From an uncultured archaeon (GTDB lineage: Archaea; Asgardarchaeota; Thorarchaeia; Thorarchaeales; Thorarchaeaceae): a DNA stretch of 16,775 nucleotides. Location: the NCBI GenBank assembly GCA_964631415.1, contig CAZVZC010000041.1, positions 1 through 16,775 of the forward strand, read 5' to 3'. The notes under the pieces are model-generated. The model worked only from the letters and a program-made list of their open reading frames with translations. It ran no database searches and was not told the DNA's origin. Both the position numbers and the translations under genes were made by a program. Positions 1,555 through 16,775 of the stretch are shown one piece after another; position 1 is the stretch's first letter, and each line of letters begins with the position of its first letter.

Positions 1555-2835
1555 CTAGGCCTTGTGGAGGCTTGGCGCTGCGATGAAGGCCAATCCGCGC
1601 TTTGTAAGCTCTTCGGCGGTCCTGTTGACAGCCTGGTGTTTGTCCAAGTAGTTCTGAAGCAGTAGCTGCATCTCACCCTTCTGCTCAATCTCACTCTTCT
1701 GCCTGAAGTAGTCTAGAATGTCGCTTGGATGGCTTCGAGTAGACTCGACACTGGCAATCCCGCCCTCGTGCTTAGCACTTATGTTCATCACATGGTCAGC
1801 CAGCTCCAGGAGCTGGGGCAGTCGGTCATAGGGCTGGCGGACAATACTCTTGTACGTTTCCGTGATGTGATGCTCGATACGAACGACGTCCTCAAAACCG
1901 AAGCTCTTTCGAATGTACGCCGCGAGCTCGATTGTTTCGTTGTCTACACTGTTGGAGAGGTTGAATCCTATCAGGGGACTACTGCCATCGCTTCGACTGA
2001 AGAGCTTCGCGGTCATCATTGTCCATAGACATGCAAAGGGATTGTCGTTACCGGTGAAAACGGAGATCTTGAACTCCATGTCTATCCCTAACTTGTGCAT
2101 CATATAGCCGACAAGTATGCTGCCAGAGTTTACATTTAGCACCTGCTTCACTCCATAAGTGGTGTAGTAGTGAAGGTACTCGTCAGCCCACCTAAGAGGA
2201 AAGTCGTTTGGCATCCCCACGCCGCCGAAGTATCCCGTGATTGTTGCAGGGCCACCAAGATGGACATTCGCGGGGGCCCCATCACGTCCGGGCATCGTCC
2301 CTTTCGTGTCGAGTGTTTCGACATACGAAGAGCCGACGATTTGCATGGCCGCAGCAAAGGCGATCACTTGATCATCTGCAGTCTGTTCCTTCATGTTCCG
2401 TACACGAATGAAACGTCCGGGCATCAGATCTCGTTCTTCAATGGCATGACGCGCTTCTTCGATCACCCATGGGAAGTATTGGCATGCGCTTATCTCTAGG
2501 GTCACAGCAAAGCTGTCATCAAACTTCATCGACCCTGCTCGCTCACCAAGTATCCTTGTTCGATAATCTGGGATGCTGATGAAGGCACTCTCATCACGTT
2601 GCTTCTCTAGCCATCTCAAATCTCGTACGAATGGTGACTTCTTTGCTTCAAGTCGAGCAATCAGGTTCTCTAGCTTGCATGCTTCGCGCGCTTTTTTGTT
2701 GACCTCGTCAACACCGCCATATTTGTCGATCACTTCGAGGAGACCAGTCGTGAGTGGGTTGTCATCACGCACGAGAAAGTCGTTGATCTTCCTTAGATTC
2801 TCGGGACCTATTCTTAGCCTCTTTCTATCAATCAT
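1555..2835 (-). CDS. Hypothetical protein (~426 aa), probably an enzyme
   Basis: Long, soluble-looking ORF with motif-like blocks (PGRFIRVR, YVETLDTKG, HLGGPATITGYFGGVG, RIEHHITE, SAKHEGG). Start chosen at MIDRKRL. Function not recognised. Confidence 0.75.
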   Translation of the reverse strand: MIDRKRLRIGPENLRKINDFLVRDDNPLTTGLLEVIDKYGGVDEVNKKAREACKLENLIARLEAKKSPFVRDLRWLEKQRDESAFISIPDYRTRILGERAGSMKFDDSFAVTLEISACQYFPWVIEEARHAIEERDLMPGRFIRVRNMKEQTADDQVIAFAAAMQIVGSSYVETLDTKGTMPGRDGAPANVHLGGPATITGYFGGVGMPNDFPLRWADEYLHYYTTYGVKQVLNVNSGSILVGYMMHKLGIDMEFKISVFTGNDNPFACLWTMMTAKLFSRSDGSSPLIGFNLSNSVDNETIELAAYIRKSFGFEDVVRIEHHITETYKSIVRQPYDRLPQLLELADHVMNISAKHEGGIASVESTRSHPSDILDYFRQKSEIEQKGEMQLLLQNYLDKHQAVNRTAEELTKRGLAFIAAPSLHKA

Positions 2836-2977: not shown

Positions 2978-3586
2978 CTAGGCTCTGTCGACAGGGCGAT
3001 TGTCAGATTGCAGATCCTCAATGGTCCCGACTTCCTCACCTTCGGGCCAATATGTTGTTCCCCTTAGATACTCCCTGATGACAGGCCCTGCCAAGACTGT
3101 CGCAATTGCGCCGCTGATTACCTGTACTGAGTTGATTGAAACCAGCTCCACGAGTGCCACCTCCCATGTGAAGCCGAGTACGAGGACCTCTCCGAATAGG
3201 TATCCCATCAGCATGGCAGTAGCGCCAAGGAGCAGTCCAAGTATGTCCCACAAACCCAGTTTCGTGCCCCTTCCGGTGCGACGACTGAAGAATCCGACCA
3301 TTGCTCCTTCAAGTCCCTTTGACAGGAAAGTGATAGGTGCATAGACTGGCGCCGCAATCAGGTCGGCCATAGCCGAACCAACGCCCCCAGCAACGAAACC
3401 CCCAACTGGACCTAGGAGGAAGCCGCTAATCATCACCAGCGAATCGCCTAGGTTGAAGTATCCCTGTGTTGTCGGGAATGGAATCGCTAGAATGAGCGTG
3501 GCAACAGTTGTCAACGCGGTTAGTACAGCCAGCAATGCGACATAGAACGCCGGGTAGTGTCCAAAGGCACGTGATTGCTTCATCAT
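2978..3586 (-). CDS. ECF transporter S component (DUF1393-like)
   Basis: Hydrophobic protein with A-L-x-x-V-A-T, IPFPTTQGYFNLGD, GPVGGFVAGGVGSAMADL and KGLEG motifs typical of S components. Start at MMKQ (3586). Confidence 0.88.
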   Translation of the reverse strand: MMKQSRAFGHYPAFYVALLAVLTALTTVATLILAIPFPTTQGYFNLGDSLVMISGFLLGPVGGFVAGGVGSAMADLIAAPVYAPITFLSKGLEGAMVGFFSRRTGRGTKLGLWDILGLLLGATAMLMGYLFGEVLVLGFTWEVALVELVSINSVQVISGAIATVLAGPVIREYLRGTTYWPEGEEVGTIEDLQSDNRPVDRA

Positions 3587-3602
3587 GGCCGACCAACACG
3601 AA

Positions 3603-3671
3603 GAGGTTTTGCCGAAGGCGAGATCCCTGTCGGCAGCTACTGTCAGAACAGATGTCACGACAGTGAACCTC
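3603..3671 (-). promoter_or_regulatory. Candidate cis-regulatory RNA (three-way junction) in the ECF S-component leader
   Basis: GAGGUU/AACCUC closes ACUGUC/GACAGU and UGCCGA/UCGGCA. The two 14-nt loops are mutually complementary. The structure ends 16 nt before the ATG. Confidence 0.4.
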
Positions 3672-3709
3672 CATTGTGCCTTCAGCACCTAGCGCACGCT
3701 TGAGGATGA

Positions 3710-3737
3710 TATATAAGCGTGTGCCTATATATAGGCA
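3710..3737. promoter_or_regulatory. Divergent promoter region: TATA-like box (3710-3717) plus perfect 16-bp palindrome TGCCTATATATAGGCA (3722-3737), candidate operator
   Basis: Perfect palindrome read directly from the sequence, lying between divergent genes, one of which encodes a wHTH domain. Confidence 0.55.
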
Positions 3738-3744
3738 GGATTCT

Positions 3745-5238
3745 ATGTCCTTCGTTAGTACACTCAAATGCACTCAGTGCGGCCGTGAGTACGCATCAGA
3801 TGAACGAATCACTACTTGTGCTGTGTGCAATGGCGTGCTCAATGTGACTTATGACCTCATTCAGCTAAGAAGGCATTTCAAAAGCACTGAGCTTGAGCGG
3901 CGGTTGCCGAGCATCTGGAAGTACTTTGAGCTTCTCCCAGTCGTAAACCTTGACACGGTTGTTTCTCTGGGAGAAGGTGGAACTTTTCTTCACAAGTGTG
4001 ATGGACTGGCAGGAAGTACCGGGATGCAGGAGCTGTATCTGAAGGACGAAACTACTAACCCAACCGGGGCATTCATTGACAGAGGAACCGCAGTGGAGGT
4101 TTCAGTCGCAAGGGAGAGAGGGTTCAAGTCGATGTGCTGCGGATCAACCGGTAATCTGGCGGCTTCTCTTGTCGCCTATGCCGCAAGAGCTGGACTCAGC
4201 AGCAAAGTCTTCATTCCACAAAGAGGGGGTGTGGACGTCGGGAAGTTCTACCAGATTCTTGCATATGGGGGAGATGTCGAAGTTGTCAGGGATCATGAAG
4301 AGGCTGAAGCGAGAGCGAACCAAGAGGCATCTCACAGCCGCATCATCAGTCCATCCAGTCCACATTTTCTTGAGGGCGTGAAAACCACGGTCTATGAGGT
4401 GTGCGAACAGCTTCAGTGGACCGGACCGGACTGGATCATAGTCCCGATGGGAAATGGCGGTCATCTCTCAATGATATGGAAAGGACTCCGTGAACTCAAT
4501 CAGGTTGGCCTCCTCGAGAACAACAAGACGAGGCTTGTGGGTGTGCAGGCGAAGGGCTGCGCTCCAATCGTGGAAGCCTTTGACAGCAATGCGGACGAAG
4601 TCAGCCCATGTACGACCGTTTCAACACTGTCGCTCGATATCAGTGTGAAGAAGCCATCTTGTGGGTGGATGGCCCTCAAGGCCATACGTGAATCGAAGGG
4701 ACATGCAATAGCTGTCCGTGACAGGGACACCCTGAAGGCGCTGGGTGATCTGGCTCGACAAGAGGGAGTGTTCGCTGAACCTTCATCAGCGACGTCGATT
4801 GCCGCACTGAGGACACTCATGGAGTCAAAGGAGATAGGCCGGACAGACAGCGTAGTTTGTATCATAACAGGCATGGGACTGAAATACCCTGAGATTGCCA
4901 GAACGCTGGTGAAGGGCAGAGCCGAGCTTGAGAACCTGCTCAGTCAGGTCGAGGATCGACGATTCACTACCCATCTAGGAAAGACCAAGGTGCATATCCT
5001 CCACATTCTGGTCAAAGGTGAATCCTATGGATACGAAATCTGGAAGAGTCTTCAGGAGGACCACGGGGTCAGAGTCAGAATCCCGAGTGTATACCAACAC
5101 CTTGTGGAATTGAAGACAAGTGGCCTCATTATTAGTACTCGGTCTGAACGAACCTTCGATGGTAGAAATCGAAGATACTATGGGCTGTCAGAACGTGGGA
5201 AATGGACGCTGAATCAACTGGAACGGTTGTCTGACTGA
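3745..5238 (+). CDS. Threonine-synthase-like (PLP fold type II) protein lacking the catalytic Lys, fused to a C-terminal PadR-type wHTH; putative transcriptional regulator
   Basis: N-terminal CxxC...CxxC, SLGEGGT, NPTGAFIDRG (canonical NPTGSFKDRG), STGN, VPMGNGG, EPSSA, TGMGLK. C-terminus ILHILxxGESYGYEIWK...SVYQHLxELxxxGLI...RRYYGLSERG. Confidence 0.88.
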   Translation: MSFVSTLKCTQCGREYASDERITTCAVCNGVLNVTYDLIQLRRHFKSTELERRLPSIWKYFELLPVVNLDTVVSLGEGGTFLHKCDGLAGSTGMQELYLKDETTNPTGAFIDRGTAVEVSVARERGFKSMCCGSTGNLAASLVAYAARAGLSSKVFIPQRGGVDVGKFYQILAYGGDVEVVRDHEEAEARANQEASHSRIISPSSPHFLEGVKTTVYEVCEQLQWTGPDWIIVPMGNGGHLSMIWKGLRELNQVGLLENNKTRLVGVQAKGCAPIVEAFDSNADEVSPCTTVSTLSLDISVKKPSCGWMALKAIRESKGHAIAVRDRDTLKALGDLARQEGVFAEPSSATSIAALRTLMESKEIGRTDSVVCIITGMGLKYPEIARTLVKGRAELENLLSQVEDRRFTTHLGKTKVHILHILVKGESYGYEIWKSLQEDHGVRVRIPSVYQHLVELKTSGLIISTRSERTFDGRNRRYYGLSERGKWTLNQLERLSD

Positions 5239-5244
5239 TCCAAG

Positions 5245-5432
5245 ACCGTTCATTGTAAGTTGGACGAAGTTGGACACAGGAGTCTTTGTCCTCCCAGAAA
5301 CGGCACTGGGGTCGTACTCCTTGGGGCTGGAATGTGTCGAGTCAGCCTCAAAGAGACGTCTGATTCGAGCTATTTAAGCCCCTACTCGAAAATGTCCAAG
5401 ATTGTCCAACTTCTACGCAGCTGTTGCATACC
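5245..5432 (-). mobile_element. Insertion element copy 2 (intergenic; body 5248-5429 flanked by ACC)
   Basis: Full-length, ~92% identical to copy 1, with the same boundaries and orientation. Starts 6 bp after the stop of the thrC-like/PadR gene. Confidence 0.9.
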
Positions 5433-5538
5433 CTTCTCTTGTGTAACATAGGAGAAGTGTTTTAACAGCTGGTACATAGTGAATATAGAGGACAGACCTC
5501 AACGGATGTCCTGTATTGTGACATAGAGGTTGGGAAGA

Positions 5539-5931
5539 ATGCCAGACAAGACATGGATGCAGACTGCTGATTGGAAGAGTGAAAAGCACGTGCCCGTGAT
5601 AGAGGCTCCTGATGCTGTGAAGAAAGGAGAAGTTGTTAAGGTGACAGTTTCTGTGGGAAAACAGATTCCACACCCCAATGTCACGGAGCATCACATAAAG
5701 TGGTTGGACCTGTTCTTCTGGGCTGATGGAGAGAAATTCCCGATGGAGGTCGGCTATGCCACGTTCGACACACACGGCGAGTCTACTCAAGGCCCGAACA
5801 CGGGTCCGCTGTACTCCGAACCCTTCGCAGTATTCGCATTCAAGATAACGAAACCAGGAACTCTCATGGCGACTTCTTACTGCAACATCCACGGTCTCTG
5901 GAAGAGCGAGAAGGATATCGCAATCAAGTAG
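5539..5931 (+). CDS. Superoxide reductase-like protein (class II SORL / desulfoferrodoxin Fe(II) domain)
   Basis: EKHVP, HPNVTEHHIKW and YCNIHGLW iron-ligand motifs. GAGGT RBS at 5526-5530. Confidence 0.9.
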   Translation: MPDKTWMQTADWKSEKHVPVIEAPDAVKKGEVVKVTVSVGKQIPHPNVTEHHIKWLDLFFWADGEKFPMEVGYATFDTHGESTQGPNTGPLYSEPFAVFAFKITKPGTLMATSYCNIHGLWKSEKDIAIK

Positions 5932-12960: not shown

Positions 12961-13139
12961 CTCGGAATACTGGAGAAGAACCTTGGTTTCGCATATAACG
13001 TTGCTTTTGCGTGTTCGGTGATCTCACGCACTCATGCACTGTCTGTGCTCGTGTGTTCAGAATTGTCACTATTGTGCAATTAATAAGGGACCTGTACTCC
13101 ACGGTGTGCTGGACACAGTCTGGTCCGAGGATGACAATT

Positions 13140-13556
13140 ATGGCGTCGAAGGAACTGATTGACCTAATGAACAAGGGAATCTCAAGAGAGATACAGGTAA
13201 GCATCCAATACATGTGGCAGCACGTGCGGATATACGGCTTCAACCATCTCCCTATAGCAGATGAGCTGAAGAAGATAGCAATTCAAGAGATGAAGCATGC
13301 CGAGAGCATCGCCGACCGAGTCGACTACTTGGGTTTCGAGCCCACGACCGTACCCGCTACGATAACTGTTGGCAAGGCAGCTGAAGAGATGATTGCAATA
13401 GACAAGAAGGCCGAAGAAGAAGCCATCACGCTCTATAGACAGATCATTGAGAAAGCGTTTGCCGAGAAGGATCATGTCACAAGGGAACTCTTCGAAGACA
13501 TACTTGAAGATGAAGAGGACCACCACAACGTGTTCAGCACACTGTTGGAGAAATAG
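13140..13556 (+). CDS. Bacterioferritin/ferritin-like protein
   Basis: E-x-x-x-x-x-QY, EMKHAESIADR, EEEAITLY and EEDHH ferroxidase pattern. GAGG RBS at 13127-13130. Confidence 0.9.
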   Translation: MASKELIDLMNKGISREIQVSIQYMWQHVRIYGFNHLPIADELKKIAIQEMKHAESIADRVDYLGFEPTTVPATITVGKAAEEMIAIDKKAEEEAITLYRQIIEKAFAEKDHVTRELFEDILEDEEDHHNVFSTLLEK

Positions 13557-16675: not shown

Positions 16676-16775
16676 ACCGTTCATTGTTAGTTGGACAAAG
16701 TTGGACACAGGAGTCTTTGCCCTCCCAGAAACGGCACTGGGGTCGCACTCCTTGAGACTGGAATGTGTCGAGGCA
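16676..16775 (-). mobile_element. Insertion element copy 3 (truncated by the window end)
   Basis: ACC-GTTCATTGTTAGTTGGACAAAGTTGGACAC...; 7 differences from copy 2 over 97 nt; same orientation and boundary. Confidence 0.88.

Follow-up and report, generated by a model that had tools for sequence, protein, structure and literature searches.

A gene encoding a fusion of a lysine-less threonine synthase (ThrC) domain with a PadR-type winged helix-turn-helix (wHTH) was identified in the genome of an uncultured archaeon of the Thorarchaeaceae. The product is best read as a homodimeric transcription factor that consists of a dead ThrC sensor and a C-terminal PadR-type wHTH and is controlled by vitamin B6, a model to which a probability of about 0.7 is assigned as a whole. 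The window, i.e., the whole stretch of DNA that was analysed, comprises 16,775 nucleotides. The features of the window that bear on this model are as follows:

2978 to 3586, minus strand: gene of an ECF S component (PF07155), PdxU/HmpT-like, predicted B6 vitamer importer and regulatory target (Pfam E = 1e-30; 4HZU)
3710 to 3716, both strands: TATA block, TATATAA on the plus strand and TTATATA on the minus strand, 6 nt from the palindrome, with fixed spacing in about 60 loci; putative promoter element
3723 to 3736, no strand assigned: palindrome GCCTATATATAGGC of 14 bp, genome-unique and conserved across phyla; candidate operator
3745 to 5238, plus strand: lysine-less ThrC-fold/PadR-type wHTH fusion gene, candidate B6-responsive regulator (Pfam, NCBIfam, AlphaFold and structural matches)
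3769 to 3828, plus strand: N-terminal CxxC...CxxC (C9, C12, C25 and C28), 95-100% conserved in the fusions and in the Lys-bearing enzymes
3961 to 4872, plus strand: PALP (fold-type II PLP) domain, residues 73-376 (Pfam, E = 3.6e-62)
4075 to 4077, plus strand: ATT codon for Ile111 where the Schiff-base Lys is expected, NPTGAF-I-DRG (alignment to solved enzymes)
4444 to 4464, plus strand: PMGNGGH PLP-phosphate loop, kept; equivalent of GNAGN 187-191 of Thermus thermophilus ThrC
4636 to 4638, plus strand: Asp298 (Ala240 in T. thermophilus ThrC), candidate ligand-specificity residue on the ground of its conservation
4972 to 5232, plus strand: PadR-type wHTH, residues about 410-496 (Pfam PadR and AlphaFold model)

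The open reading frame is intact, as a sequence-only reading of this DNA had claimed, and encodes 497 amino acids. An alternative GTG start at 3676 was rejected because homologues begin at the ATG at 3745 and the longer form would cover the promoter. The nearest relative, from a Thorarchaeota genome, is 93% identical. The AlphaFold model (mean pLDDT of 88, pTM of 0.78) has threonine synthases as its top structural matches (Foldseek E 1e-28 to 1e-30), and a ThrC-type fold-type II PALP domain is present in the protein. The wHTH, which had been placed at about 4960-5238, was recovered at nearly the same position. Its Pfam core (residues 418-490, nt 4996-5214, E = 1.3e-12) scores 48 bits against PF03551, the gathering cut-off of which is 27, solved PadR proteins are also matched, and the domain begins near residue 410 (nt ~4972) in the model. 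The N-terminal cysteines probably form a zinc ribbon, a putative zinc-binding element that is common to the Lys-bearing archaeal ThrC-like enzymes.

The replacement of the canonical Lys by Ile, noted earlier from the codon, was borne out by alignment to four solved threonine synthases: Ile111 stands at the position of their Schiff-base Lys, numbered Lys61 in T. thermophilus, and the SFKDRG lysine by which a threonine synthase is recognised is absent. The query and its 120 closest homologues, nearly all of which carry PadR, contain Ile (106 proteins) or Leu (15 proteins) at this site, with three Ile codons (ATT, ATC and ATA) in use across the genomes. A sequencing error or private mutation was rejected, since all 120 close homologues have Ile or Leu and the Ile codons vary. 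A wider comparison was made by a profile search of 50%-identity representatives, counting proteins with a residue at the Lys site. Lys is missing in 69 of the 71 fused representatives (I, L, V, M, T, F, R and others) and kept in two, whereas it is present in 76 of the 80 unfused ones, the other four being without the C-terminal part. Whether the loss co-occurs with the fusion was a question left by the sequence-only reading, for which retention of Lys in fused homologues would have told against a regulator. By this comparison Lys has been lost across the fusion family together with the wHTH fusion, and retention is confined to the two proteins mentioned.

In a tree of the PALP domain, built by a quick method with a midpoint root from which the order of events is not readable, a branch with an SH-aLRT of 96 splits the Lys enzymes from all fused forms, and an Arg class (support 94) includes both Lys-bearing fusions. 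The Arg-class fusions (L029-L035, L099 and L168-L182) are found in Thermococcales, Jordarchaeia and Bathyarchaeia and belong to NCBIfam PRK05638. They often adjoin a PF07155 S component and often lie in a housekeeping context (MCM/GINS). Genomes with both Arg-class and hydrophobic-class fusions also occur (e.g., G301).

The other PLP-contact motifs, earlier said to be kept, were all found, namely STGN (134-137), PMGNGG (234-239), EPSSA (345-349) and TGMGLK (375-380). The PLP contacts retained relative to T. thermophilus ThrC are N137 (N87), G236-H240 (GNAGN loop), E345 (E287), T375 (T317) and F110 (F60), whereas T88 is replaced by L138, N154/S155 by S202/P203 and R160 by F208. T88, K116, N154, S155 and R160 bind the substrate phosphate of O-phosphohomoserine in the T. 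thermophilus enzyme, and K116 alone is kept, as K167. Residue by residue, this alignment shows that the PLP ring and phosphate pocket is kept in the fusion protein. Across the wider family the PLP-phosphate loop is variable, and the STG of STGN is degenerate (S134 in 32% and T135 in 32%). Position 298 is D or E in 99% of the hydrophobic-class fusions and A, G or S in the enzymes. A hydrophobic residue in place of Lys, combined with the new acid Asp298, would suit an amine such as PMP.

The possibility that the protein is an active or bifunctional threonine synthase, or another PLP enzyme, as annotated, is scarcely credible. It agrees with the database names, with a PRK08197 score of 321 against a cut-off of 303, with NCBIfam PRK05638 'threonine synthase', which covers the full length of the fusion, and with the two fused representatives that keep Lys. 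However, Ile, Leu, Val, Met, Thr and Phe are unable to form an aldimine or to serve as acid/base, no substitute conserved Lys lies near the motif, and the substrate-phosphate residues are lost. The genome also contains three further ThrC-like genes with Lys (on contigs C9, C2 and C6), which bears on the earlier question of a separate intact thrC.

Homodimer prediction gave a score of 0.84, compared with 0.01 for the best control, with a contact agreement between runs of at least 78% and a pLDDT of at least 83; 20 of 30 solved homodimers pass the mark applied, as does 1 of 23 monomers. The predicted interface is ThrC-like, with confident contacts in the ThrC domain and in the helix (395-405) that links this domain to the wHTH. 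K167, Y169 and Q170 lie inside it, which would explain their conservation. As the interface equals that of ThrC, the homodimer result may reflect recall of solved structures. A homodimeric state of the fusion protein is thus supported at the level of the predicted model.

The palindrome GCCTATATATAGGC is separated by 6 nt from the TATA box of the divergent S-component gene, on the upstream side of this box. It is the sole site at two mismatches or fewer in the 2.16 Mb genome, where 0.003 exact copies are expected, and it precedes the regulator gene, 6-7 nt from the TATA block, in all 27 of the closest loci (Thorarchaeota, Hermodarchaeota and Bathyarchaeia). Its conservation extends from Asgard archaea to Thermoproteota and includes the GCC/GGC flanks. 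The composite operator pattern gave 37 matches and no control matches in 301 Asgard genomes, and a strict pattern gave 34 matches against 3 control matches in 401 Thermoproteota genomes. Among 151 typed Thermoproteota genomes, all 17 operator matches fall within the 27 carriers of a hydrophobic-class fusion and none within the other 124. The operator is absent from the Arg-class fusions (Thermococcales and some Bathyarchaeia), and the conclusion is therefore limited to the hydrophobic class. The Thorarchaeal-family loci that were read have the composite at the regulator gene, plus one extra site before a GNAT gene: one Thorarchaeal genome (G005) contains two regulator loci and a third operator (L066:11949-11962), which has an HTH_10 regulator on one side and a GNAT acetyltransferase on the other and lies close to an Asp/Glu racemase. 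A threonine regulon was rejected, as no operator was found near the Lys-bearing paralogues or elsewhere in the genome.

The core TATATATA of the palindrome is TATA-like and lies between divergent genes, and the element could be merely a back-to-back core promoter with two TATA boxes, the wHTH binding elsewhere or non-specifically. This is very improbable, because the GCC/GGC flanks are conserved across phyla, a separate TATA block lies 6 nt off, and the element occurs once per genome (more often in G005) and only in genomes with a hydrophobic-class regulator. The fusion protein is almost certainly a transcription factor. That it might be an active synthase without specific DNA binding, an objection which accompanied the sequence-only reading, finds no support in a conserved, genome-unique palindrome that tracks the protein.

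The only PDB relative of the S component is 4HZU, HmpT/PdxU2 (E = 3e-10), and the preferred substrate of HmpT/PdxU2 is pyridoxamine (PMC4860826). The S component has D/K/E at the HmpT substrate positions E41/H84/Q, and some operator-linked S components carry H. It is predicted to import a B6 vitamer; PF07155 spans several substrates. In 25 of the 27 close loci, the S-component gene comes first or second on the divergent side. At the shared promoter of some loci (L021, L022, L024, L027 and L046), it is accompanied or supplanted by GNAT, EamA and radical-SAM genes, for which reason an amino-acid ligand was considered at first. ECF T components are encoded in the genome and pdxS was found in none of the 77 genomes of the Thorarchaeal family, so that uptake is the expected target here. 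A pyridoxal kinase (PF08543) gave at most a weak partial match in this genome, with no clear kinase. An HMP/thiamine module was rejected, no thiamine gene recurring among the identified neighbour clusters.

A link to B6 synthesis genes was found in other archaea when neighbourhoods were examined for pdxS and pdxT, as the sequence-only reading had proposed. In five Thermoproteota genomes (L144, L146, L147, L148 and L216; four of them within the 151-genome sample), the regulator gene and pdxS-pdxT point away from each other on either side of the same element. These five genomes may form one clade, and related genomes in general do not count as independent. In two further genomes, pdxS lies on a separate contig with an upstream site, which is strong in L196 and weaker in L186 (scores of 29.8 and 16.7; training minimum of 27.9). 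Remote sites, away from the regulator gene, precede S components in L205 (458 kb away), L218, L222 and L231. None of 11 pdxS promoters has the operator in genomes without a detected hydrophobic-class regulator (10 sampled without the class and one with the Arg class). Eighteen new sites, found blind, lie before an S component (15), pdxS (one), a GH18 gene (one) or nothing (one). Six of these 18 sites have no regulator gene at their promoter; in three of the four genomes checked, the regulator was located elsewhere. Because sites occur at B6 supply promoters that have no adjoining regulator, the element follows the B6 supply genes and not the regulator alone.

A B6 regulon is very likely for the fusion protein, and a B6 vitamer is probably the direct ligand. 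The sequence-only reading had suggested a sensor of B6 vitamers or of a phospho-amino acid that acts on the divergent S component, possibly in B6/HMP uptake. The B6 option is the part that appears to stand, whereas HMP and a phospho-amino acid are disfavoured, since the operator fronts pdxS-pdxT elsewhere, the solved relative of the S component is HmpT/PdxU2 and the substrate-phosphate residues are lost.

Seven Thermoproteota loci (L149-L153, L156 and L215) contain an operator-bearing regulator that faces a GH18 gene and not a B6 gene. No pdxS was found in this group, in which the B6 target seems to have been lost or to be located elsewhere. In L205, L217 and L218, an amidohydrolase (PF04909), possibly an enzyme of B6 salvage or degradation, is encoded after an S component that has the operator in front of it.

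A transcription factor with an amino acid, a phospho-amino acid or a PLP-amino-acid adduct as its ligand would instead control a module of amino-acid uptake, acetylation or export, and the pdxST link would then be a local re-wiring. The GNAT, EamA and radical-SAM genes at the promoter in five loci, the extra site of G005 before a GNAT gene near an Asp/Glu racemase, and the retention of the STGN carboxylate loop and K167 in Thorarchaeota are in line with such a ligand. Nevertheless, this reading is improbable. The protein has lost the substrate-phosphate residues, STG is degenerate across the family, K167 may be conserved for its place in the predicted dimer interface, and the operator is absent from the thrC-like paralogues but present at pdxS both in cis and in trans. 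Bacterial B6 regulons contain pdxST, pdxU, RimI/RimL acetyltransferases and DMT transporters (PMC5320631). GNAT and DMT genes are thus regular members of B6 regulons, the RimI/RimL and DMT genes of the PdxR regulon resemble the GNAT and EamA genes found at the shared promoter of some fusion loci, and the amino-acid reading loses most of its force.

In the B6 model, the dead pocket would hold PLP or PMP, the vitamer being phosphorylated and no Schiff base being formed, Asp298 would favour the amine of PMP, and the dimer would recognise GCCTATATATAGGC. The order of elements toward the target is operator, 6-7 nt, TATA and gene, also in stand-alone promoters (L186, L196, L205, L217-L222 and L231), and the order toward the regulator is TATA, operator and start codon. 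In archaea, activators that contact TFB usually bind immediately before the BRE/TATA, and sites past the TATA block initiation. The operator lies between the TATA and the start codon on the regulator strand and would thus block transcription of the regulator itself. Relative to the supply gene it occupies such an activator position, directly ahead of the BRE/TATA, so that activation is the most likely effect on this gene, and activation is held to be somewhat better than an even bet. At low B6 the uptake gene would be activated, and the vitamer would switch activation off, as with bacterial PdxR; the target in the pdxS-less Thorarchaeon would be the S component. The family as a whole has an even chance of being an archaeal B6 regulator in the full sense, an independent PdxR-like switch from a fold-type II enzyme that reads the vitamer (possibly PMP via Asp298) non-covalently since the Lys has been given up, activates pdxST/pdxU next to the BRE and represses itself.

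The same regulator and regulon could also work by plain co-repression, in which the vitamer-bound protein blocks TFB/TBP at the shared TATA and shuts both promoters in a ThiR-like manner, without activation. PadR-type proteins are mostly repressors, which agrees with co-repression, and the operator is so near the TATA block (6 nt) that a dimer footprint could cover the BRE. Co-repression is, however, the unlikely alternative, because the site in stand-alone target promoters is always upstream of the TATA at a fixed distance of 6-7 nt, and such rigid spacing suits TFB contact better than a steric block. The divergon layout also matches that of the activating PdxR of bacteria, the apo-protein of which activates pdxST and represses pdxR, with PLP as the anti-activator (PMC5320631).

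MocR regulators are stated to be absent from Archaea (PMC5320631). The fusion is like PdxR and other MocR/GabR regulators in combining a wHTH with a sensor derived from a PLP enzyme and in forming a divergon with pdxST. In MocR/GabR proteins, a GntR wHTH at the N-terminus is joined to an aminotransferase-like domain of fold-type I, whereas in the fusion the ThrC domain (fold-type II) comes first and the PadR-type wHTH is C-terminal. In keeping with this, the fusion gave no GntR match and its sensor is not of fold-type I, while a divergon or regulon with pdxST or pdxU was found. It also differs from MocR/GabR in that it has no Schiff-base Lys and that its site is one 14-bp palindrome by an archaeal TATA box. 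By these comparisons, the fusion would belong neither to MocR nor to the threonine synthases, although it appears PdxR-like in its working.

The ThrC enzymes of T. thermophilus, Aquifex aeolicus, Bacillus subtilis and Mycobacterium tuberculosis share with the fusion the fold, the dimer interface and the PLP ring and phosphate pocket; the fusion differs in lacking the catalytic Lys and the substrate-phosphate residues, in having Asp at the Ala240 position and in the attached wHTH. PRK05638 models the fused architecture but names it an enzyme. A PF03551 wHTH, with a score above the cut-off, and a palindromic site are shared with the PadR family. Known PadR proteins, however, are small, stand alone and dimerise via their own C-terminal helices, whereas the fusion is neither small nor stand-alone and is predicted to dimerise and sense by its ThrC-like domain.

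ThiR is an archaeal enzyme-derived vitamin regulator that is similar in kind to the fusion, with another vitamin and fold. RbkR is likewise an archaeal one-component regulator with an HTH and a vitamin-pathway enzyme domain, both RbkR and ThiR acting on genes for the synthesis and uptake of their vitamins, but it keeps kinase activity and differs from the fusion in vitamin and fold (PMC5397151). The sensors of RbkR and ThiR come from the vitamin's own pathway enzymes, whereas that of the fusion comes from a cofactor-using enzyme.

No paper on a ThrC-PadR fusion or an archaeal B6 regulator was found in the searchable literature, and subscription papers may mention the fusion. If the model is true, the gap of an archaeal B6 regulator would be filled by a named protein together with its 14-bp operator and a list of targets, and many archaeal ECF S components would have B6 as their likely substrate. 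A widespread misannotation would also be corrected, as PRK05638 and 'threonine synthase' entries would inflate threonine-pathway calls in Asgard archaea, Bathyarchaeia and Thermococcales. The fusion would further show clearly how a PLP enzyme can become a cofactor sensor through loss of the catalytic lysine.

Several other elements of the window were noted. The S-component gene has a leader of ~100 nt (3590-3690, minus strand) with two hairpins inside a closing stem, which is confined to this genus, having been seen only here and in the 93%-identical relative, most relatives having a much shorter one. An Rfam scan of 3400-3900 gave nothing near the gathering score, and the leader folds no better than shuffles (z = -1.16), so that a riboswitch is unsupported so far. 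Downstream of the S component lies a gene (1555-2835, minus strand) for a protein of 426 amino acids, and the same order occurs in 23 of 39 loci. This protein has no Pfam or NCBIfam match and no B6 link was found for it. It has at least 8000 homologue clusters and a TIM barrel fold with weak aldolase/transaldolase-like matches, and it is a member of a large, conserved, unnamed enzyme family.

An element of 189 bp, present in three copies that are 91-93% identical (347-535, 5245-5433 and 16676-16775), looks like a small non-autonomous mobile element. One copy begins 7 nt past the regulator stop codon and is unrelated to the regulator. Nearby genes at 752-1444, 5530-5931 and 13062-13556 encode oxidative-stress and iron proteins (rubrerythrin-like, desulfoferrodoxin-type superoxide reductase and ferritin/bacterioferritin-like), which are syntenic in Thorarchaeota without the operator. 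Elsewhere in the same genome (G000, contig C16:14846-14936), a tRNA-Sec (TCA) was identified by ARAGORN.
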